A DNA stretch of 64,000 nt, from positions 10,080 to 74,079 of the IMG/VR virus record IMGVR_UViG_3300022555_000045; one strand, 5' to 3'. Of this stretch, positions 3,036-13,608 are shown piece after piece (position 1 is the first letter of the stretch; the number at the start of each line of letters is the position of its first letter). The notes beneath the pieces are model-generated. The model was not told the DNA's origin and searched no databases. It was given only the letters and a program-made list of their open reading frames with translations. The translations under genes were made by a program, and so were the position numbers. Source of the stretch: a virus (taxonomy: Duplodnaviria; Caudoviricetes).

Positions 3036-6000
3036 ATGTCACGAATTTTTTTACCCAACAAAAAGCTAATTATTCCAGACGGTGTTAAGGTAACAAACTC
3101 CACAAGTAGTAATAACGTTGCTAAAGTTGTGAGTAAAGCCGATAAAGAAGCTGACGCCAAACGTAGGAAAGATGACTCGGAATCCCGTAAGACCGAAGCT
3201 AGGAAAAGTGAGCCTTTAGGTGAGGTAAAAATCAACAACAAGTACAAGCCCGCCAAGCCAGTTGTAGGAGTAGAGGGTAAATCTGAGAAGGTTAAGTCCG
3301 GTAAGTCGTCAGAGGGTAAGAAGATAGTGGCGGAAATTCTACCTCCGCTTCTTAAGCCTTCATCTATTGGACCCTCTAGTCCGGTTAGTTTAGGTGGGGT
3401 GGGGACGACAGGCTCGACCGGAAAGAAGGATAAGAAGTCGTGTTTGGGTTGCTCCAAGTTCATGACCTGTGTTGATATTAAAAAGGCGTTCAACTACTAT
3501 TGCAACAAGTTTGAAGTTCGTGGATCATCTATTGATTTGGACTCTTTTGCTAAGCAGAACACTGTAGCAGAAGAAGCTACCGTTTCGTCTAAGGTTAACA
3601 AGCACGTTAAGCGTGACACTACAGTTAAGAAGTACGAAGTTGATAACGTTGATTCTGATGTGGACCCTGGTGACTTTAACGTTCAGAAACTGATTAGGGA
3701 AGCCTCTTCGGATAGTCACAATGTTGCTAAAGCTGGTGGCATAAAAATTGACGATAGAGATTTATCGTACGCTCCAAACTTTGTTTCTTTTCTAATTGAT
3801 TCTTTCGGTGAAGTAGGTTATGAGCCATGGGCTAAGCAAATCATGTTTGGTTCGATGCTTTTTGGAGATTACTGCTGGAGCCCTACCTGTTCAGACGCTA
3901 GATATGCCAAAAACATACCAGTAGGTGACACTGTAGACCAAGTTCTTGAAAGGATTACATTCCTAGAATGGGGAAAATGTCCAACCTGTGGAAAAACTAG
4001 ACATGACTTCTGGAATGAGGGTAAACAGCACGATTACTATGAGTTTGTGGCACTCTTAGGACAGAGGTGCGGAAAAAGTAGTATAACTGCATTGATGTTC
4101 GCGTATCAGTTGCAACGTTTAATAAAATTGGGAGTTCCTGCAAAAGTGTACCCTGGTGTGTTACCTAGTACACCATTGGTAGCTACTTTTGTTGCAGTGT
4201 CCTTCAAACAAGCTAAAGACGCTTTATACGAACCCTTCTTGGGTATGGTGGAGAGTAGTAGTTTTTACAAGGAATACCATAAGATTCTTGACTACTACGG
4301 AAATAAGCACGGGGAGCAACTATATAAAGTTAGAGACACCTTTGTATGGTATTCCCCATCGAATTTAAGCCTTTTTCCCTCGACCACAAGCGGTAAGACT
4401 CTTCGTGGTTATACACGATGGGGAGCAGCCTGCTTGTCTGGAGATTCGTTAGTTTTGACAGATAAGGGTTTTATAGAAATTAAGAATAATCTTGTCGGGT
4501 TTACTACAAACACTACTACTAACGAAATGAAAACAATAAGCAATTGGGCTTATACTGGTAAGAAAGAAGTAAAGCGTGTGACATTAGCTAATGGCTTATG
4601 GTTAAAAGTTACCGATGATCATAAGATTCCTGTGTTGACTAAAACCTTGGACATTGAGACTAAACGTGTTGAAGATTTACAAGTAGGTGACTACGTTGGT
4701 GTAGCTTACAATACTCAAGTTTTTCCTAAAGTTAATCCTGAGTTTACGTTTAGTCATGCTTATCCAGTAAGGAAGTACGTTGAAATAATTAAGAAGGTTG
4801 GAGAACTAGGTACTTTTAGGCTTAGTGATTTAGGCATTTTAGGTAACACCTCTTCCGCTAGGAATACAGTGATTAAATTAGCTAAAGCTGGCATGGTGTA
4901 TGTGGATCATAGAGTGGGTAGGTTTAGAGTCTATAAAATTACTTCAGAATTTACTATTGACAAAGCTATAGCCAGTCAAACGTCTGGTAAATTTAAACGT
5001 TATGCCATAACATTTCCTGCTACTATGACTCCGGACCTAGCGGCGCTATTAGGGTGGTTTGTATCTGAAGGTACTTATAGTGAAATAGCTAGAGAGTTTA
5101 TGATATGTAATACTGATAAAGTGGCAGCTGATCATATTGTAAACTCTGCTGAAAAAGTTTTTGGTGTTGCTCCTCGTATAAATTTAGATACGCGTGGAGG
5201 AAATTCTCCGTATAAAAGTATATGGAGGATATTTTTTGCCTACGAGAATACTAAAAATTTTCTACGCTACGTAGGACTAACTCCATCTCTATCAAAGACG
5301 AAGACTATTCCTTGGAGTGTGCTTACCTCTACTAAAGACTGCCAAAAAGCCTTCCTTCAAACCTTATTTGAAGGAGATGGTTGCTGTTGCACTGTTGACT
5401 GTAAAGTGTCTTATGCTACTACTAGTAAAAAGTTAGCTTTACAGCTACAAATGATGTTGCTAAACTTTGGTATATATTCTAATCTTATAGTTTACGATGG
5501 AAGTAAACGCAGTGATAAGTATAATATTTCATACCATATTGAGTTACCAGTTATTGAAGGTATGAAGTTTATAAAGCGTATAGGATTTCTAACAAAAAAT
5601 AAAGCGTATCTTAAGGAAAGTACCAGTAATAGGTATACTCACTTTAGGCTACCCTACATATCTTTTACGGGTAAGTATCCTGATAAGAGTGGTGCTTTTC
5701 AAAAGGTAAAGACTCACGTGTACTCTATTGATTACGCTAACAGGAAGACTAAGAATAGAGGCTTAAACAAAGCAATGTTCGTACCTGGAATTCAGGACAA
5801 AATGGAGGCTTTGATTGATAACCATACTATATGGCAACCTATTAAGTCTATCAAGAAGTTAAAACCTGCTGTTAAGACTTATGACATAACCGTTGATGAT
5901 GCTACCCATAGTCTTGTTGCTCACGGTATGAGAATCAACAACTGCGACGAATTAGGACATCTTGCTGCTAAAGATAAAGGTGCAGTAAAGATGAACCCTG

Positions 6001-7286
6001 ATTTAGTAGTAGACGCTTTACGGCGCTCTTTGCTTACTGTAAGAGCAGGTGCTGATACGCTACATCGTAAAGGTAATTATGATGTACCTCATGTGTTGTT
6101 TGCAAACGTATCTTCTCCTATGCATTTAACGGACAAAATCGTACGTTTGTACGAAGAATCTAAGAACTCTGAGTCGATGTTGGGATACCACTATTCCGTT
6201 TTTGAAGTAAACCCTCTTATCACTGAGAAGGTGTTAGAAGCAGAACGTAGGTCTGACCCCGAAGGTTACAAGCGTGACTATTTAGCTATTCCTCCTCGTG
6301 CTACCCATGTATTCTTACCTTCTAAATCAGTATTGACTTCAGCTGTGGGTAAGCATAAGAATATTATAGCTTTAACACAGGAAACAGGTAAGTCTGCCGC
6401 AGGTTTACCGATTATACGAGCTAAGGCGAAAGTGTTAAAAAAGGACGCGGTTACTCCTCGTGTGCTTGCTATAGACGCGGGCCGGACAGATAACGCATTT
6501 GGAGGGTGTATCATGCACCTTAGGCAAACTACTGTAGGTAAAGATAAGGAAGGTAACGAGTTGATTGAGGAAATGCCTACAGTTGATGCCTTCTTTGAGA
6601 TTGTACCTGAACCTAAGAAACCTGTTAACTTCAATAATGTCTATGAAAAAGTCCTACGACCTATAATGATAGGACTTAACATAAAATATATTGTTGCTGA
6701 TCGTTGGAACTCTGCAAAAATTCTTGACGATTTAGAGGCCGAATTCGGGTGTGGGTGGTCGTTTTGGACGCTTCGATGGGAAAATTTTTTATTAGTAAAA
6801 AACTCCTTTATCAATAGTGAAGTTCTATTGCCTAAACCTGAAATTTCACTATCTGACGCTATGACTCTGAGTTCTAAAAATTACCCGTTTTCGATGATTG
6901 GAAAACCAGTTTCACACTTCATGGTTGAGGCTATGACTGTGGAGGAGAGCATGGGTAAAACTGTCGAAAAAGGGGACAAACGGACAGACGACTTATTCCG
7001 TGCGTTCTGCCTAGCGTACTGTGCTCTGCACGATGAGGAAATACGTGACGAGTACCTATTCGGAGAAGAGGAGCCACCAGCCAAAGCTATAGACACAGGT
7101 AGTCTATGTTTCTATGGTTCCTACGGTGGCGGGGGCTCAGCACCTACTAGCAGAGGTGGTGGAATAGGGTCAGGTGCTACAGGTAACTTTTTCTCTGGTT
7201 CACTGTCTGGTGGGTCAGGTCACAGTTCGGGTGGTGGTGCTTCTGGTGTAACAGGCAAAGTTTTCACTGGTGGTGACAAGAAGTAA
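3036..7286 (+). CDS. terL: Terminase large subunit containing an intein
   Basis: Walker A LLGQRCGKSS; Walker B reconstituted across the intein as RWGAA|CDELG; RNase H-like nuclease motifs VLAIDAGRTD, IVADRWNS and TDDLFRA. N-terminal Cys clusters and a Gly/Ser-rich tail. Confidence 0.9.
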   Translation: MSRIFLPNKKLIIPDGVKVTNSTSSNNVAKVVSKADKEADAKRRKDDSESRKTEARKSEPLGEVKINNKYKPAKPVVGVEGKSEKVKSGKSSEGKKIVAEILPPLLKPSSIGPSSPVSLGGVGTTGSTGKKDKKSCLGCSKFMTCVDIKKAFNYYCNKFEVRGSSIDLDSFAKQNTVAEEATVSSKVNKHVKRDTTVKKYEVDNVDSDVDPGDFNVQKLIREASSDSHNVAKAGGIKIDDRDLSYAPNFVSFLIDSFGEVGYEPWAKQIMFGSMLFGDYCWSPTCSDARYAKNIPVGDTVDQVLERITFLEWGKCPTCGKTRHDFWNEGKQHDYYEFVALLGQRCGKSSITALMFAYQLQRLIKLGVPAKVYPGVLPSTPLVATFVAVSFKQAKDALYEPFLGMVESSSFYKEYHKILDYYGNKHGEQLYKVRDTFVWYSPSNLSLFPSTTSGKTLRGYTRWGAACLSGDSLVLTDKGFIEIKNNLVGFTTNTTTNEMKTISNWAYTGKKEVKRVTLANGLWLKVTDDHKIPVLTKTLDIETKRVEDLQVGDYVGVAYNTQVFPKVNPEFTFSHAYPVRKYVEIIKKVGELGTFRLSDLGILGNTSSARNTVIKLAKAGMVYVDHRVGRFRVYKITSEFTIDKAIASQTSGKFKRYAITFPATMTPDLAALLGWFVSEGTYSEIAREFMICNTDKVAADHIVNSAEKVFGVAPRINLDTRGGNSPYKSIWRIFFAYENTKNFLRYVGLTPSLSKTKTIPWSVLTSTKDCQKAFLQTLFEGDGCCCTVDCKVSYATTSKKLALQLQMMLLNFGIYSNLIVYDGSKRSDKYNISYHIELPVIEGMKFIKRIGFLTKNKAYLKESTSNRYTHFRLPYISFTGKYPDKSGAFQKVKTHVYSIDYANRKTKNRGLNKAMFVPGIQDKMEALIDNHTIWQPIKSIKKLKPAVKTYDITVDDATHSLVAHGMRINNCDELGHLAAKDKGAVKMNPDLVVDALRRSLLTVRAGADTLHRKGNYDVPHVLFANVSSPMHLTDKIVRLYEESKNSESMLGYHYSVFEVNPLITEKVLEAERRSDPEGYKRDYLAIPPRATHVFLPSKSVLTSAVGKHKNIIALTQETGKSAAGLPIIRAKAKVLKKDAVTPRVLAIDAGRTDNAFGGCIMHLRQTTVGKDKEGNELIEEMPTVDAFFEIVPEPKKPVNFNNVYEKVLRPIMIGLNIKYIVADRWNSAKILDDLEAEFGCGWSFWTLRWENFLLVKNSFINSEVLLPKPEISLSDAMTLSSKNYPFSMIGKPVSHFMVEAMTVEESMGKTVEKGDKRTDDLFRAFCLAYCALHDEEIRDEYLFGEEEPPAKAIDTGSLCFYGSYGGGGSAPTSRGGGIGSGATGNFFSGSLSGGSGHSSGGGASGVTGKVFTGGDKK
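4431..5942 (+). mobile_element. Intein (504 aa) with LAGLIDADG homing endonuclease in TerL
   Basis: Block A CLSGDSLVLTDKG at 4431, block B VTDDHKI, LAGLIDADG motifs LLGWFVSEG and FLQTLFEGDG, block F/G TYDITVDDATHSLVAHGMRINN followed by +1 Cys. Confidence 0.92.
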
Positions 7287-7299
7287 CGGCACAATACAA

Positions 7300-7336
7300 G
7301 GGAGATTAGCTAGAAAAGAACTCTAGCTAATCTCCC
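7300..7336 (+). terminator. Intrinsic terminator-like hairpin
   Basis: gggagattagctaga-aaagaac-tctagctaatctccc, a 15-bp perfect stem after terL. Confidence 0.7.
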
Positions 7337-7374
7337 GATTCTTAATTTTAGAGATACAAGAATGGAAATCAAAA

Positions 7375-8121
7375 ATGAACTATACACAGGACTCCTCACA
7401 ACTAGCTATTAGAGACCATCAAGCCTTAGACTACTTGTACGGTACAACGACTAGTTGCCTAATAGATTCAGCTAAGCTGCTGTTTAACAGGTTTAAGCAA
7501 GAATCCCACTTAATCAAAACTAATAGTTTAGTAGTGTCTGAGCATACACCTTTTGGCATTACGCTACATCTTAAGATTATATACCATGAGCCAATTACAA
7601 ACTCAATAGCAGGCGTATATAATCACGATACGCACACAATTACTATCTACTTCTCATGCTTTGATGTTCATGGGCATCTTGAGACGATTGAACACATTAT
7701 ATACGAACGCTTCAGTGATTTTCTACTTCTCGCCTTCCAAGACTTGGACTTAACAGAGAGCTTAGGTCCGTTATTAAAGTCGTTTGTAAAATTGGAAAGT
7801 AAACACCGTATAGACTACTTGGACTTCATTAGTCACCTTGCCGGTTACTGTAACACGTTACCCAAGTTGTTATTCGTAGAGATGCTAGGTGAGTCTTACC
7901 TTAAACCTACAGGTAACCACTCAGTTGCTAGTAAACTTCAAAAATTAGCCTATATAGAATCTGATGACTACATGAATGACTTTAGAAAAGAAGACTTAAG
8001 ACAAGCTCACACTTGGCAAATAGTCAAGGCTCAACTACCAGAACGGTTAGTAACCTTTATGTTCCGTCTACTTTTTGAGTTTTTAGAACGGCAGGCCACA
8101 GAATTGGACAATTACCTTTAA
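7375..8121 (+). CDS. Hypothetical protein, degenerate paralog of the HEXXH protein at 30007
   Basis: Shares GVYNHDTHTITI vs GEYNYKTKTIEL and HTWQIVK vs HTWDFIK with 30007..30870 but has no HEXXH. Confidence 0.7.
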   Translation: MNYTQDSSQLAIRDHQALDYLYGTTTSCLIDSAKLLFNRFKQESHLIKTNSLVVSEHTPFGITLHLKIIYHEPITNSIAGVYNHDTHTITIYFSCFDVHGHLETIEHIIYERFSDFLLLAFQDLDLTESLGPLLKSFVKLESKHRIDYLDFISHLAGYCNTLPKLLFVEMLGESYLKPTGNHSVASKLQKLAYIESDDYMNDFRKEDLRQAHTWQIVKAQLPERLVTFMFRLLFEFLERQATELDNYL

Positions 8122-8230
8122 CATTTGTGTTGACTACCGTAGTAAAAATAGTTTAAAAATAGCAAAAAAGAATAAACAGCTTCTGGGAGAATCTTAATTT
8201 TGTTTGTAAGTCCCATAGGGAGATTTAAAA

Positions 8231-8452
8231 ATGACCGAAGTAACTTCAGCGTTTCCTCAGCGTAGGAATCCTTTATTCAACAGTTCGGCTGCTGCCGCTG
8301 CCCAGAACATCATAGATTCAACTAAACCTTTCCTTACTGCACCAAAGAGTCCTGTCACTGGTAAACTGATGGTTCGGTCTAGCATTGGTGACATTCCTGT
8401 TTGGTGGTGCCCTACTAGCCGTATTGTTCTACCTGTAGCCAAAGAAGAATAA
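8231..8452 (+). CDS. Small hypothetical protein
   Basis: SD ggag and a late motif upstream; 73 aa ending in VWWCPTSRIVLP, which looks like half of a Zn-ribbon. Confidence 0.7.
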   Translation: MTEVTSAFPQRRNPLFNSSAAAAAQNIIDSTKPFLTAPKSPVTGKLMVRSSIGDIPVWWCPTSRIVLPVAKEE

Positions 8453-8482
8453 CCCGTTAACCAAGTAAGAGAGCAACGAACC

Positions 8483-8674
8483 ATGCCAAGAATAATCAAT
8501 TCTGACGATTGCACTAGCTGTGGTGCCTGTGAAGCAGAATGTCCTACAGCGGCTATTTCTGCTGGGGACACCTCAAGTGTAATTGACACTGGTAAGTGTA
8601 ATGACTGCCCTGACCGGGATGACCTATCCCGTTGTGAGGAAGCTTGTCCAGCCGACTGTATCCACCGGGTTTAA
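8483..8674 (+). CDS. 2x[4Fe-4S] bacterial-type ferredoxin
   Basis: CTSCGACEAECP and CNDC-x8-CEEACP, two cluster motifs, the second with the insertion typical of Alvin/YfhL-type ferredoxins. Confidence 0.92.
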   Translation: MPRIINSDDCTSCGACEAECPTAAISAGDTSSVIDTGKCNDCPDRDDLSRCEEACPADCIHRV

Positions 8675-8707
8675 CTCAATAACTAATCTAACAAGAAAGT
8701 AATAATA

Positions 8708-8926
8708 ATGCCTACTATTCTTCATATTGAAGCCGGAACTGAAGACTGGGATCCTACTCCAGAAGACCTAGAAGGTCTGACCAAGCTGTTCTTGGAAGCC
8801 TCTAAAGAGCCTGACATTGCTGTAGTAGCCACTAGGGAGGGAGTTAAGGTTTCTGTTCTAACCGTACCTACAGTTGACTCAGTTAATGTTTCTGAAATCA
8901 AGTTGTATCACAACACAAAGGGCTAA
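8708..8926 (+). CDS. Mini-protein homologous to the portal clip domain (copy 1)
   Basis: ILHIEAGTEDWDPTPEDLEGLTKLFLEASKEPDIAVVATREGV aligns with portal residues 295-338 at about 22/44 identities by hand. Confidence 0.8.
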   Translation: MPTILHIEAGTEDWDPTPEDLEGLTKLFLEASKEPDIAVVATREGVKVSVLTVPTVDSVNVSEIKLYHNTKG

Positions 8927-8933
8927 TCCTCTC

Positions 8934-9155
8934 ATGACTCAGAAGATTCTCCACATTAAAGTCGGTTCAGCGTTTAAGGCTTTGGACCAAGCTACCATCC
9001 TAGACCTGTTCAACAAGTTTGTTGCTGACATGACCAATTCTGAAGTCGCTGTTCAGAGTGGATTAACCTCTGAGATTGTTGACCTTAACGAACTTATGTA
9101 CCTCTCCCCAACCTCCGTCATGGCTATTTTAACCATTGACACCGAGTCCGAGTAA
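8934..9155 (+). CDS. Mini-protein, diverged portal clip-domain paralog (copy 2)
   Basis: Probable ATG at 8934 after aaaggg. KILHIKVG matches portal GILHIEVG, and AVQSGL resembles ATRSGV. Confidence 0.6.
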   Translation: MTQKILHIKVGSAFKALDQATILDLFNKFVADMTNSEVAVQSGLTSEIVDLNELMYLSPTSVMAILTIDTESE

Positions 9156-9163
9156 CCTAACTA

Positions 9164-9195
9164 GGTAGGTCTAGAGTCGAAACTCTAGACCTACC
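9164..9195 (+). terminator. Hairpin / terminator
   Basis: ggtaggtctagagt-cgaa-actctagacctacc perfect 14-bp stem. Confidence 0.65.
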
Positions 9196-9256
9196 GTCGT
9201 GTTCTGAATTAAAAATAACAATCTAATCTTTTGTTCTTTTTGTATAAGAGGGTATT

Positions 9257-12200
9257 ATGATGCTTAAGGGTCTTGGACAGTATCAAGTTACTTCAACCAA
9301 TAATGGAGTTAAGATGACCCCACGTGGAGGCTTAACTACCTCTGAACGTGGACTAGGTTCATCTATGTCCATGACCCGTAGGGAAGTTACTGCTGCAGCA
9401 ACTGGGACAAGTAACTGTGGGCCAGGAGCTTCTGGTGGGGGTGGGGGGTTTGGAATTTCTGGTGGGGGTGTTAACGCCAATTATATTCGTTCCGTAGTTG
9501 AGGATTTTATTCCTCTTGGAAATGCTGACGCTTACCGCCGAATCTACCGCGATATTTATTACCATCAACCGACTGCTGGGTCTGCTGTTGATCTGCTATC
9601 AACACTACCTTGGTCAGATTTCGTTTTAACAGGACTTCCGTCCGCTGATCTTCTTAAGCAATATGCAAAGTCCATTGAAAACCTTAAGATCAAAACTCTT
9701 CTCCCTGAGATGAGCATTGATTATCTGGTAATGGGCACTTTTATTGGTGTACTCAATTTTGATGCTGCTAGTAAAGTTTTCGTCTCTATTGCACCACAAG
9801 ATGTTGAATATTGTACTATTAACCCGGTAGGTGTGTACGGTGAGGACCCTATCATTGACCTTCGTCTACCTCCTGAGCTAATGGAAATGCTTGACAAGTC
9901 TAAAAAGGACCCTCGTTACGATTCTGTTAAAGCTAAGCTTCCAGGGTTCCTAATTAACAATGTTAAGAAAAACGGAGTTATTAAGCTAAACCCGTCTAAC
10001 GTTCTTTATTTACCTCGTAGGACTTTTTCCACGAGCACAGTAGGTGTGTCTTGTTATCGGCGTTTGGTCGGTCTTTATCTGTTGGAAAAGGCGCTTATGC
10101 GCGGATCGATAGAAGCAAGCTATCGTCGGCAACGAGGTATCCTGCACATTGAAGTCGGTGATAGTTTTGATTGGCAGCCTACTCGTGAAGAGCTAAGCAC
10201 TGTTACTCAGATGGTAATTAACGCAGATCTAGATCCAACAGGTGCGGTTATTGCAACTCGCTCTGGGGTCCAGTTCAATGAAGTACGTTGTTTAGGCGGT
10301 AACACTTATGTGCATACCGAAAACGGGTTGATAAAGATTAAAGACTTAGTACCACACAACCCCAAGAAGATGATCGAAGGCACTATGTTACCTTTAGACC
10401 TTCAAGTTAAAGGTATGACTGGTAACTTCGTTTTAGCGACTCATTGGCACTACCAAGGCGTCAAACCTGTTAATAACTACTATACTGATTCCAATATAAA
10501 ATTGACTTGTACCGAGGAGCATAAGTTTTTAACTGTAGGAGAGTACGGTCAACTTGAATCTGCCAAGATAAAGGATATTGTTAAAGATAATCGTTGGCTA
10601 TGTATTGATAAGGCGGGGTTAGACTACAATGAGGTTGGAAAAGACTTGGAACTGAACTTACGTTTTCCAGATATTAAAGCTAGGTTTTTGACTAGAACTA
10701 ACACTGATATAACTTTACCAAAGCGTATGACTCCGCAACTGGCCTATATAATTGGAATTCTCATCAGTGAAGGTTACATTAACAAGCGCGGAGCGTATGT
10801 CAATAATACAGACTTAGAGCTAATTGCTGCTTACAGTGAAGCTATTTTAGATACTTTTGGTATGGAAACTAAAATAGGCGAGGGTTCTCCTATAGGAGAA
10901 GAAGTTGTAATATTAGGTAGACAGCAGACGCGTAAAAAGAAAATCTATCAATGTCGCTTGCATGGTGTTATAGTAGTAGATATTCTAAAACAGTTAGGAT
11001 TGGTTAACACCGCTGAAGTTAACAATCGTGAGAAGTCTCCTTCTTACTATAAGAAGGTTCCTTGGAGTATAATGCAAGCAGACCGTGAATGCAAGATAGC
11101 CTTTTTAGCAGCTTACATAGAAGGTGACGGTTGTATTGGAAAGTCTCCAAACAAGACAAGTGGGACTAAAACGGTCGATATTCGCATAGCTAGTAGGTCG
11201 GTGTATACGCTAAATTCAATAAAAATATTGTTACAAAGTCTTGGGTTTTTATCTAATACCTGTTACGAACCTAGGTATGAGCTAAAATTAACAAGAGCTG
11301 AAGGTTCTAGGTTGTATAACTTAATGTATAAGTATTTGGTACTTCCTTATAAGAAACACCATGTTAAATGTGATGATGTTTCTATGGTAAGGTACGGAAT
11401 ACCAGCTAGCGTATTCGTTTCGGTGTTAAAAGAGCGTAAAATAAAGAGTGCTATAGGTGGGGTGTGGTTTAAAAACGACGAAGGCTCCTCTGTCTTTGTA
11501 GAAGGCCCTGTTGGTAATATTTTTAAACACTACACTGCTGTAAAAGAAGCTATATGCTTACGCTATGAGCGGTTAGACACGGGTGACTATACTAAAGAAT
11601 TATCTATTATTAGGCAGGTTAGTCCAAAACTCTACTTCAATATACTAAAGCTTGCCTCTCTCAAATACAAGTTTGAGAAGGTTGTTAAAGTAACTAAAGC
11701 CAAAGATCAACCAACTTATGATCTTACAATAAATTCTGACTCTGCTCCACTATTTCTTATTGCTGGTGGCGTAGTAACTCATAACTCCGGCTCGGATTTC
11801 TGGAAAATCAGCGATATGAACGAGTTTTTAAATAGTTCATATTTGCGAGCATTAGGGTTAAGCGAGTCTTTACTCTCTGCGGAATCCTCCATTTCGACCT
11901 CTGAAGCTTCCATAAGTTCGTTCCTTGAGAGCCAAAGGGCGTACCGCGATTTGGTAGTACGTAAAGTCTTCACTAACCGGATATTCCCAGCTATTGCCGT
12001 ATCGAACTCATTCCTACGTACTAAAGCGGAAGAACGTAAGGAAGTAGCAGGATCATTAAATCATAATCCAGTAATGATTGACGGTAGGTACCGTGAAGTA
12101 CTGGCCTCAAACGGTGAGAAGTCCTACGAGGTAACGTGCGACGGTGAGATTAAATCTTATCAAAATGAAGACTTGACTCAGTATTATATGCCGCGTATAC

Positions 12201-12718
12201 AATGGCATAAACACCTTAAGCCTGAAGGTGACCGTGATTATCTGGACATGTTGAACGGCTTAGAGGATAAAGGTCTACCTATCCCACTTCGTATGTTAGC
12301 CGCTGCTGGTGGTGTGTCGTTAACAGAAGTAATGACTTCACTAGACGAAGATGTGAGGATACGCCAGCAAGTTGACAAGTATTTCAAAGCTCGGCCTAAA
12401 ACCCCCAAAGAACAAGCCGACGCGGCACAAGCAGGTGGTTCCGGTGGTGGTATGGGTGGTGGGTTAGGTGCTCTAGCCTCACTAGTTGAGCCCCCAGGGA
12501 ACTTCAAGAAGAACCGTAACTTCGAATCAATTGAGATGCGTGACCCTGACACTGGTAAAGTCCTCAGTAAAAAAGGCCGCAAAGTTCAAGAAGAGAAGTT
12601 AATCAAAAAGGCAGCTCTAGTCCTATCTAACGTAGCTCGTAAAGAGAACCACAAGATTAAAACTGACGAAACTATCAAACCTGTCGGTGAAGGTGTCTAC
12701 GGCGTTAGCGAGTCTTAG
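9257..12718 (+). CDS. Portal protein containing an intein
   Basis: Located downstream of terL. Motifs YRDIYYHQPTAGSAVDL, RRQRGILHIEVG and WKISDMNEFLNSSYLRALG give a portal wing/stem/clip pattern once the intein is removed. Confidence 0.85.
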   Translation: MMLKGLGQYQVTSTNNGVKMTPRGGLTTSERGLGSSMSMTRREVTAAATGTSNCGPGASGGGGGFGISGGGVNANYIRSVVEDFIPLGNADAYRRIYRDIYYHQPTAGSAVDLLSTLPWSDFVLTGLPSADLLKQYAKSIENLKIKTLLPEMSIDYLVMGTFIGVLNFDAASKVFVSIAPQDVEYCTINPVGVYGEDPIIDLRLPPELMEMLDKSKKDPRYDSVKAKLPGFLINNVKKNGVIKLNPSNVLYLPRRTFSTSTVGVSCYRRLVGLYLLEKALMRGSIEASYRRQRGILHIEVGDSFDWQPTREELSTVTQMVINADLDPTGAVIATRSGVQFNEVRCLGGNTYVHTENGLIKIKDLVPHNPKKMIEGTMLPLDLQVKGMTGNFVLATHWHYQGVKPVNNYYTDSNIKLTCTEEHKFLTVGEYGQLESAKIKDIVKDNRWLCIDKAGLDYNEVGKDLELNLRFPDIKARFLTRTNTDITLPKRMTPQLAYIIGILISEGYINKRGAYVNNTDLELIAAYSEAILDTFGMETKIGEGSPIGEEVVILGRQQTRKKKIYQCRLHGVIVVDILKQLGLVNTAEVNNREKSPSYYKKVPWSIMQADRECKIAFLAAYIEGDGCIGKSPNKTSGTKTVDIRIASRSVYTLNSIKILLQSLGFLSNTCYEPRYELKLTRAEGSRLYNLMYKYLVLPYKKHHVKCDDVSMVRYGIPASVFVSVLKERKIKSAIGGVWFKNDEGSSVFVEGPVGNIFKHYTAVKEAICLRYERLDTGDYTKELSIIRQVSPKLYFNILKLASLKYKFEKVVKVTKAKDQPTYDLTINSDSAPLFLIAGGVVTHNSGSDFWKISDMNEFLNSSYLRALGLSESLLSAESSISTSEASISSFLESQRAYRDLVVRKVFTNRIFPAIAVSNSFLRTKAEERKEVAGSLNHNPVMIDGRYREVLASNGEKSYEVTCDGEIKSYQNEDLTQYYMPRIQWHKHLKPEGDRDYLDMLNGLEDKGLPIPLRMLAAAGGVSLTEVMTSLDEDVRIRQQVDKYFKARPKTPKEQADAAQAGGSGGGMGGGLGALASLVEPPGNFKKNRNFESIEMRDPDTGKVLSKKGRKVQEEKLIKKAALVLSNVARKENHKIKTDETIKPVGEGVYGVSES
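10289..11785 (+). mobile_element. Intein (499 aa) with LAGLIDADG endonuclease in portal
   Basis: Block A CLGGNTYVHTENG, block B CTEEHKF, motifs IIGILISEG and FLAAYIEGDG, ending TYDLTINS...GGVVTHN followed by +1 Ser. Confidence 0.92.
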
Positions 12719-12729
12719 ACCGTAGTAAA

Positions 12730-12763
12730 AGGTGGTGGGGTTGCTAGTTAAACCCTACCACCT
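12730..12763 (+). terminator. Terminator-like hairpin
   Basis: aggtggtgggg...accctaccacct inverted repeat after the portal stop. Confidence 0.55.
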
Positions 12764-12795
12764 GAATACAGTTCACACCTAAAAGGTTTATTATT

Positions 12796-13608
12796 ATGTC
12801 CATTTTAGATGAGCTTGACCGCTATCTCGCTACTGCTAACGCAACCACGTTCCGTTGGAATTTTTCAGCCATAAATGCTATTAAGGTAAATAAGGCACCT
12901 CCTCCTAATCAATACTATGTAATAATTGCTACATATGCTAGTGATAACTTTTATTATCTTGTAATAAAGTTAGAATTACTACCGATAAAGGATAAACCTT
13001 ACAAAAATTTTGGTTACTTGTTGTCAGTAAAACCTGAAGGCTGTCCTATGATTGATATTAACGATGCTTTTACTCCTGAAGGTTTAGCTTTAAAGAATAA
13101 ATACATGCCTCATTCAGGAGATAGAGAGCAGGTTAAAGACACTTTAGTAAGTGTAGTAAAGCCTACTTTGGAGTTGGGTGGTAATCCGCCTCACGTAGTT
13201 CGTGAACCAATGACCGAAGCAAAACTTAATAGTGAGCGGTATCAAAAAATTACTGATGAGTTTTTGAAATTAGGGTATTCTTTTGAAAAAGTTATAGGCG
13301 ATGACGGAAAACTCTACTTTCATCATAAGTTAAAAGGATTCTCCGAGGCATCTCTTTCTTCAGAAGTTGAGGCTACTTATATTGAAGGAAGCACCAGTTT
13401 TGCTGAGCTTACTATTATGCGGAATCTCAATAACTACCTGTCTGAACACGGCGAGACTCTACGTAAACTTAATAATGATCTGTTTAACCACTATATGGAT
13501 CATGCTGAAATTGTAAGGCTACCTGACGGGAACATAGGACTATTAAGCTCTATATCCGGTGAGATTTTAGAAGTCCTTACAAACGCGCCAATAGTCCCTC
13601 CTACTTAA
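12796..13608 (+). CDS. Hypothetical protein (possible internal head protein)
   Basis: 270-aa ORF with SD aaagg in the head module; contains SEVEAT. Confidence 0.65.
   Translation: MSILDELDRYLATANATTFRWNFSAINAIKVNKAPPPNQYYVIIATYASDNFYYLVIKLELLPIKDKPYKNFGYLLSVKPEGCPMIDINDAFTPEGLALKNKYMPHSGDREQVKDTLVSVVKPTLELGGNPPHVVREPMTEAKLNSERYQKITDEFLKLGYSFEKVIGDDGKLYFHHKLKGFSEASLSSEVEATYIEGSTSFAELTIMRNLNNYLSEHGETLRKLNNDLFNHYMDHAEIVRLPDGNIGLLSSISGEILEVLTNAPIVPPT

Follow-up and report, generated by a model that had tools for sequence, protein, structure and literature searches.

Why does a jumbo phage carry, ahead of its portal gene, two small free-standing proteins that resemble one short segment of that same portal? 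The question is raised by mini1 (P0001) and mini2 (P0002), two open reading frames of the window, by which the whole stretch of 64,000 nucleotides analysed here is meant. This window belongs to an IMG/VR contig of 74 kb, which corresponds to about one third of a jumbo phage.

Organization of the terL-portal locus

The plus strand of the locus carries, in this order, terL with its intein (3036-7286), a 248-aa ORF, a promoter-like motif at 8190, a micro-gene, a ferredoxin gene, mini1, mini2, a hairpin, a second motif at 9220 and the portal gene. The pattern AATCTWAWYTTT was matched five times in the window against 0.27 matches expected, at 2993 (upstream of terL), 8190 (small-gene operon), 9220 (portal), 20123 and 44235. 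The match at 8190..8201, AATCTTAATTTT, is a candidate late promoter motif of the small-gene operon, and a variant promoter-like motif, AATCTAATCTTT, was found by the same kind of pattern search at 9220..9231, ahead of the portal. The micro-gene (8231..8452) encodes 73 aa with an NPLF motif, aligns with small ORFs of relatives and is not clip-like, and mini1 (8708..8926, 72 aa) encodes a canonical stand-alone clip module with a C-terminal beta-hairpin-like tail. A degenerate second module is encoded by mini2 (8934..9155, 73 aa), which begins 7 nt past the mini1 stop in a different frame. The series closes with a 14-bp perfect hairpin (9164..9195; -25.2 kcal/mol, z -4.9, equalled in stability by 0 of 200 shuffles), which lacks a U-tract and is a putative terminator-like end of the operon. 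The portal (P0003, 9257..12718) counts 1153 aa including an intein and belongs to the PaBG/Lu11/BcepSauron type (phrog_16240, E 2.8e-116); the segment that it has in common with the mini-proteins, as placed by the alignments and by the topology of a modelled relative (P0007), covers residues ~291-345 (10127..10291), and the LAGLIDADG intein covers residues 346-843 (10292..11785; Pfam LAGLIDADG_3, E 2.7e-14, and Intein_splicing), with both of its ends matching the Mxe GyrA intein.

Two further features of this region were observed. Each of the two packaging genes, terL and the portal, is interrupted by a LAGLIDADG intein, and a 63-aa 2x[4Fe-4S] ferredoxin (8483..8674; Pfam Fer4, E 2.3e-10, with Fer4_10 and Fer4_7) is sandwiched between the portal-linked micro-gene and the clip mini-genes in the same putative late operon.

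Both mini-genes exhibit the phage codon bias in their own frame only, with values of 0.48 for mini1 and 0.36 for mini2 in the annotated frame; 72-codon pieces of long genes give 0.40 +/- 0.14 and off-frame readings -0.63, and the other five frames of both ORFs give off-frame values. The identical mini1 protein is also present on a 254-kb contig, and mini1 and mini2 are real genes of a freshwater jumbo phage of about 254 kb. Three contigs from different samples (L003, L004 and L005) are base-identical to the window over positions 4708-12926 (8.2 kb), and 31 contigs encode the exact mini1 protein; this suggests a freshwater phage population that is widespread and very uniform.

Relationship of mini1 and mini2 to the resident portal

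An earlier note had aligned mini1 by hand with portal residues 295-338 at about 50% identity (22/44) and had described the ORF at 8934 as a more diverged second copy, of which the first is confirmed and the second modestly supported. BLASTP aligned mini1 with portal residues 295-341 with 22 of 47 positions identical (47%), 68% positives and an E-value of 3e-11, and mini2 aligned colinearly with residues 295-338 at 14/44 identities (32%; pairwise E 0.023). A family profile built from 42 members, with both window ORFs left out, was searched against the 902 six-frame ORFs of the 74-kb contig, where mini1 ranked first (80.5 bits, E 3e-24), the portal second and mini2 third (13.2 bits, E 0.0027), and no further clip copy was detected in the contig. 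In comparisons with PHROG profiles, mini1 matched the portal profile phrog_16240 at positions 292-340 (E 1.3e-7) and phrog_11049 at profile positions 100-164 (E 2.9e-5).

The two proteins match the portal profile only at approximately 279-325 of its about 650 positions. The module occupies residues 3-49 of mini1 and 3-47 of mini2, each protein starting within a few residues of the domain boundary. They are not portals themselves, since with 72-73 aa they hold only the clip positions of a polypeptide that runs wing-stem-clip-stem-wing-crown. All of the family core residues (H, G, W-x-P-T, F, A and T-R-x-G) are present in mini1, and its tail of alternating hydrophobics (V-K-V-S-V-L ... V-N-V-S-E-I) aligns with the tail of the family; the ESM Atlas model of mini1 has a pLDDT of 0.45. 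Structural look-alikes of mini1 in the ESM Atlas were limited to low-scoring, thioredoxin-like chance matches. The H, G, F and S-G residues and the hydrophobic pattern are kept in mini2, which lacks A, W-x-P-T (a 3-residue gap) and T-R, and it is considered a degenerate copy because the latter two motifs are lost. Its membership in the family is modestly supported by a modest score together with its tandem position, size and N-terminal start, and the gene may be decaying.

Assignment of the shared segment to the portal clip

When the portal or its profile was used as the query, the PDB yielded no portal. The relative taken for modelling was P0007, which lacks an intein and is 36-37% identical to the window portal. 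For the alignment, 80 related portal loci were gathered from IMG/VR, and P0007 was modelled with AF2 from a 61-sequence alignment of these loci (mean pLDDT 71.6, pTM 0.59), the clip region reaching a moderate pLDDT of 60-84. The best Foldseek matches of the model were the portals of phiKZ, T4, lambda, 812 and G20C, all with probability 1.0. The module of P0007 (residues 287-349) is predicted to consist of a strand (298-302), a helix (311-326) and a second strand (339-343), flanked by long helices at 273-292 and 353-367, with a 38-residue helix after them. In T4 gp20, the clip (residues 279-358) is composed of beta-strands and one helix and joins the two stem helices, lies outside the capsid, where gp13 and gp17 dock on it, and provides the only beta-sheet that is built from the main chains of different subunits (PMC4493910). 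The clip assignment is accepted because the topology of the P0007 module equals that of the T4 gp20 clip. The claim of the earlier note that the shared segment is the clip is thus supported by a strand-helix-strand unit predicted between stem helices, a correspondence of topology with T4 rather than a residue-level superposition.

The intein of the window portal is inserted directly after the last clip strand (...E-V-R) and before a conserved S-G-x-D-F-W, and intein-less relatives read straight through this site. The intein of another portal (P0012, L008) occupies the identical site. Since the intein follows the last clip strand and the P0012 site is identical, the end of homology near the intein is taken as a domain boundary and not as a by-product of homing. 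Free modules are also carried by Lu11, BcepSauron and Motura, whose portals of 663, 652 and 619 aa are open frames without an intein. An origin of the mini-genes as intein or homing by-products was considered and rejected, as free modules occur in phages with intein-less portals and a dN/dS of 0.10 was measured in the family. In a further portal (P0010, L006), an intein lies upstream of the clip.

A family of free-standing clip modules

Among cultured phages, tblastn of mini1 matched portals plus small non-portal genes. These include Lu11_0130 (196 aa) and HRDY3 XDJ15160 (196 aa, labelled 'portal protein'), the two-module proteins BcepSauron gp210 and its BcepSaruman homologue (154 aa, labelled 'portal protein') and Motura QDH83427 (189 aa, two modules). 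A search of 1.84 billion representative proteins with a profile of six free modules recovered 592 clusters at E<=1e-3 and 92 at E<=1e-10. The best 150 of the 592 comprise 3 of portal length, about 50 single modules of <=100 aa, 28 two-module proteins and about 55 in which a module is joined to other sequence, and more than 130 of these 150 match the full-length portal profile only at about 277-325. Most of the free proteins begin with the module and have a tail pattern in common, a putative C-terminal strand-turn-strand recognised as a sequence pattern that runs through the free modules and is absent from portals. No Pfam family was found on the module in any of 149 members (0/149), of which 138 match the portal PHROG family and 75 match phrog_11049. 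Fusion partners are rare and include DUF1653, HTH and WYL_2.

Differential conservation was observed along the module. In portals and free modules alike, H, G, W, P, F, A and T reach a conservation of >=85%, and the W and P of the surface loop are kept at 96-98%. The near-invariant A-D-x-D-P-x-G loop of the portal is relaxed in the free modules, with D falling from 93% to 19% and P from 99% to 54%, so at least one portal surface is left unmimicked. In a tree of 230 modules the free and portal labels cluster, with 10 changes compared with 60 for shuffled labels, the 49 columns being too few to tell one origin from several. The nearest relative of mini1 is a free protein (P0085, 57% identity), compared with 47% to its own portal, and the view of the earlier note that the mini-proteins are local copies of the portal is not supported. 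As judged from sequence, mini1 and mini2 belong to a large undescribed accessory family and are not recent duplicates of the portal next to them. Their tandem resembles the two-module proteins of BcepSauron, Motura and the 28 clusters, split over two genes. Co-evolution of free modules with their own portals was also considered; it is clear for BcepSauron and Motura only, whose free modules have the lineage-specific D-P-L/N-G-G-W residues of their own portals, and it fails for the window, Lu11 and HRDY3.

The architecture of some members deserves separate mention. The module is joined to a partner domain of about 100 aa (phrog_872/9467-like), which is N-terminal in Lu11 (L001:5662-6252, Lu11_0130) and HRDY3, and a similar-looking stretch, judged by eye, is C-terminal in G018 (L134:4430-4882); at L137:5741-6240, an 87-aa ORF that possibly represents the same partner domain (no PHROG hit) is followed by a 79-aa module ORF. 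The two modules of one protein (P0020) have the same strand-loop, I-L-H-I-T-V-G-I-D-N-V-W-E-P-T, at which its close relatives P0165-P0169 differ, a pattern that looks like gene conversion between the modules; most of the differences within this two-module cluster (P0020, P0165-P0169) fall in the strand-loop. Signal-peptide-like leaders (R-R-S-F-L-V-G; L-L-A-S-A-L-G-I-L) or lysine/arginine-rich tails were observed in P0019, P0029, P0085, P0093 and P0147, and such N-termini hint at different locations or additional nucleic-acid binding in sub-families.

Distribution, neighbourhood and selection

A free copy was detected in 3 of the 29 near-complete IMG/VR genomes with the same portal type, and no free module was found within 4 kb of the portal in 83 related portal loci. 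The portal-adjacent mini-genes of the window are therefore unusual, because free copies are rare (3/29) and none of the 83 loci has one next to the portal. That a position upstream of the portal is typical is thus not supported, and the free modules of the cultured relatives lie elsewhere in the genome. A conserved clip copy upstream of the portal was accordingly rejected; the ORF that relatives carry there is the NPLF micro-gene (58-73 aa), directly upstream of the portal at L006:4690-4887, L007:4822-4998 and L008:1379-1588, in loci whose portal N-regions are 38-43% identical to that of the window. Its N13-P14-L15 residues are invariant and a V-x-P lies near the C-terminus, and the micro-gene may encode a portal-linked factor. 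In the window, the ferredoxin gene, mini1 and mini2 intervene between the micro-gene and the portal. A similar-sized small ORF occurs at the corresponding spot beside the P0007 portal.

The free modules of cultured phages lie far from the true portals, adjoining primase and resolvase genes in Lu11 and HRDY3 (as also in L137) and near GroES in BcepSauron and Motura. The free module of G002 is located two genes downstream of a major head protein homologue, and other members lie in arrays of small genes, with a NUDIX hydrolase, a large DNA methyltransferase and, at a locus edge, a NADAR-domain gene as neighbours. Synteny with an upstream gene of about 365 aa was considered and rejected, as the neighbours are unrelated (Lu11_0132, phrog_21298; the major-head-protein homologue of G002; a peptidase in Motura). 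All the cultured carriers and the 3 IMG/VR genomes with a free copy also encode a portal of the PaBG/Lu11/BcepSauron type.

Scans of IMG/VR with mini1 and the portal N-extein yielded no close relatives of the window genes, and no polymorphism was observed in these genes among the available assemblies (3 identical over 8.2 kb, the cluster members providing only alternative starts). Selection was therefore measured on another member of the family, the two-module orthologues P0166/P0167, for which dS is 0.238 and dN is 0.025 (dN/dS 0.10; 20 synonymous and 8 non-synonymous changes), and purifying selection on this member is indicated by the one orthologue pair. On the contigs of these two genes (L138 and L139), a homologue of Tad3, of the Type I Thoeris inhibitor family (PF25185, E 1.7e-22, 79.9 bits against a cut-off of 27), lies 3-4 nt downstream of the two-module gene, an arrangement seen in one lineage only. 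Upstream of the clip-Tad3 pair, a TnpB gene (OrfB_IS605 / Cas12f1-like_TNB) is located at differing positions (L138:185-1471; L139:2617-3903), with a resolvase beside the L139 copy, which points to recent mobile-element activity in this accessory region.

Proposed function and rival explanations

The ligands of portal clips fall into three kinds, namely TerL, the neck proteins together with neighbouring clips, and host sensors. In T4, gp17 is bound, and packaging inhibited, by a 24-residue peptide taken from the gp20 clip (288-311; PMC4493910). Among host sensors, SpbK recognises the assembled YonE ring by docking on its clips, with clustering as the activating step, and Avs4 also senses the portal clip. 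The clip is not involved in the targeting of the stringent response by portals (PMC13483052). As possible roles of the mini-proteins, the earlier note had suggested regulation of terminase docking, chaperoning of the ring during assembly, or decoys for sensors of the Avs4 type. The explanation we favour is that the mini-proteins act as soluble clip mimics occupying a clip-recognising protein, and as a whole we hold it to be evenly poised between right and wrong. On this explanation, mini1 and mini2 would be co-transcribed with the micro-gene and the ferredoxin gene from the late-type motif, transcription stopping at the hairpin before the motif of the portal; a clip without stem, wing and crown could not enter the ring normally and would still present the same surface, and the free clip would then occupy the protein that recognises the portal clip. 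The candidate partners would rank as a clip-docking host sensor (a counter-defence decoy), then the large terminase, then neighbouring portal subunits.

The accessory behaviour of the family and the Tad3 neighbour may tilt the choice slightly in favour of the counter-defence decoy. The wider proposal, that free clips are widespread decoys which saturate SpbK-, Avs4- and Avs11-like sensors and thereby blind portal-triggered abortive infection, is tentative and seems to us rather unlikely. It would require that the sensors cluster on, or wrap around, the portal clip, so that monomeric copies could saturate them, and the tandem modules and fast turnover would represent an arms race with the sensors. 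Against a decoy, the window genes, with terL on one side and the portal on the other, are part of a putative late operon and not of an accessory island, a position that would fit a role in packaging or assembly at least as well. A mimic that binds an Avs4-type sensor might trigger rather than block it, and the signal-peptide-like or very basic N-termini of some members are unexplained by a cytoplasmic decoy.

Regulation of the terminase is a reading that we consider unlikely, in which the free clip would bind the portal-docking surface of TerL and either keep its nuclease/ATPase inactive up to the point where the portal, with the avidity of its twelve-fold ring, displaces the free clip, or poison the packaging motor of a co-infecting related phage. 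The blocking of packaging by the gp17-binding T4 gp20 288-311 peptide (PMC4493910) argues for it, as does the G-x-x-x-W-x-P-T strand-loop, which is the best-conserved part of the free modules and has a similar linear offset from the start of the clip; in addition, the mini-genes are flanked by terL and the portal and preceded by the same promoter-like motif. A core packaging factor, however, should be conserved and syntenic, and the family occurs in 3/29 genomes and is portal-adjacent in 0/83 loci. Much the same patchy distribution speaks against a portal-assembly factor or cap, a distinctly improbable reading in which the free clip would pair with the open clip edge by beta-sheet augmentation and either chaperone monomers or block aberrant rings. 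The two-module fusions (28 clusters) could imitate two adjacent clips, and the modules of BcepSauron and Motura, encoded near GroES, share the D-P-L/N-G-G-W residues of their own portals, but such resemblance is absent for mini1, Lu11 and HRDY3, and the sheet may be completed in cis by the additional, putative hairpin at the C-terminus.

It is also conceivable, though quite improbable, that phages reuse the clip fold as a generic small domain for interaction or nucleic-acid binding, functionally unconnected with the portal and its partners. The fusions with HTH, WYL_2 and DUF1653, the lysine-rich N-tails and signal-peptide-like leaders of some members and the relaxed A-D-x-D-P loop, invariant in portals, are consistent with this; the presence of the matching portal type in all cultured carriers and in the 3 IMG/VR free-copy genomes, and the retention of the W and P of the portal surface loop at 96-98%, argue for a link. 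Hardly credible, finally, is non-functional debris, that is, portal fragments left by recombination or by intein/homing-endonuclease activity. Features that would fit debris are the end of the homology, 4-5 residues short of the site where the intein is inserted, the degeneracy of mini2 and the different frames of the two ORFs. More than 130 family members, however, have their domain boundary at this very end point, and most of these come from intein-less contexts. Both genes show in-frame codon bias and have their own start codons at the domain boundary, mini1 is closer to other free proteins than to the resident portal, and purifying selection is seen in the family; for mini1, the debris reading is largely refuted.

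Comparison with known systems

The packaging motor and the neck dock at the portal clip, as do at least two immune sensors of bacteria, which makes it a hub. If the decoy reading were true, the free clips would be the first counter-measure against structural-protein sensing that works through mimicry of the sensed epitope, and if regulation of the terminase or of portal assembly were true, they would add a new layer to jumbo-phage morphogenesis. Cultured carriers are available for direct tests, namely Lu11 (Pseudomonas putida), BcepSauron, BcepSaruman and Motura. For annotation, the analysis defines the domain boundary cleanly and supplies a seed alignment from which a new family could be built, and some 'portal protein' labels in RefSeq are wrong. 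What distinguishes the case of the window is a split tandem pair beside an intein-bearing portal.

No description of stand-alone clip proteins was found in the literature searched, including the jumbo-phage comparative survey PMC7824862. The earlier note had known of no such system, and its impression is borne out in that neither a publication nor a Pfam family was found for these proteins. No clip mimic was found among the anti-defence proteins in the literature searched. Nip reportedly acts by binding the TIR domain and not by portal mimicry.

The closest known counterpart is the portal clip itself (T4 gp20 279-358; the phrog_16240 portals of PaBG, Lu11, BcepSauron and Motura), which is homologous, has the same strand-helix-strand order and shares the H, G, W, P, F, A, T and R residues. 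The free genes differ from it in encoding 65-260 aa without stem, wing or crown, in their added, putative C-terminal hairpin and relaxed loop, and in the tandem modules of many members. The T4 gp20 288-311 peptide is a laboratory reagent, whereas the mini-proteins are encoded by phage genes. The same module as in mini1 is present in phrog_11049 (the Lu11_0130 family), which models the Lu11 form with an extra N-terminal domain of about 105 aa, whereas the window proteins are bare modules in two ORFs; database labels for such proteins read 'hypothetical' or, wrongly, 'portal'. Counter-defence proteins that work by occupying an immune sensor or the signal of one, such as Tad3, or Nip acting against SpbK (PMC11984713), are likewise small, patchy and variably placed accessory genes, and SpbK-YonE and Avs4 provide documented cases of immune targeting of the very surface that the mini-proteins appear to mimic.
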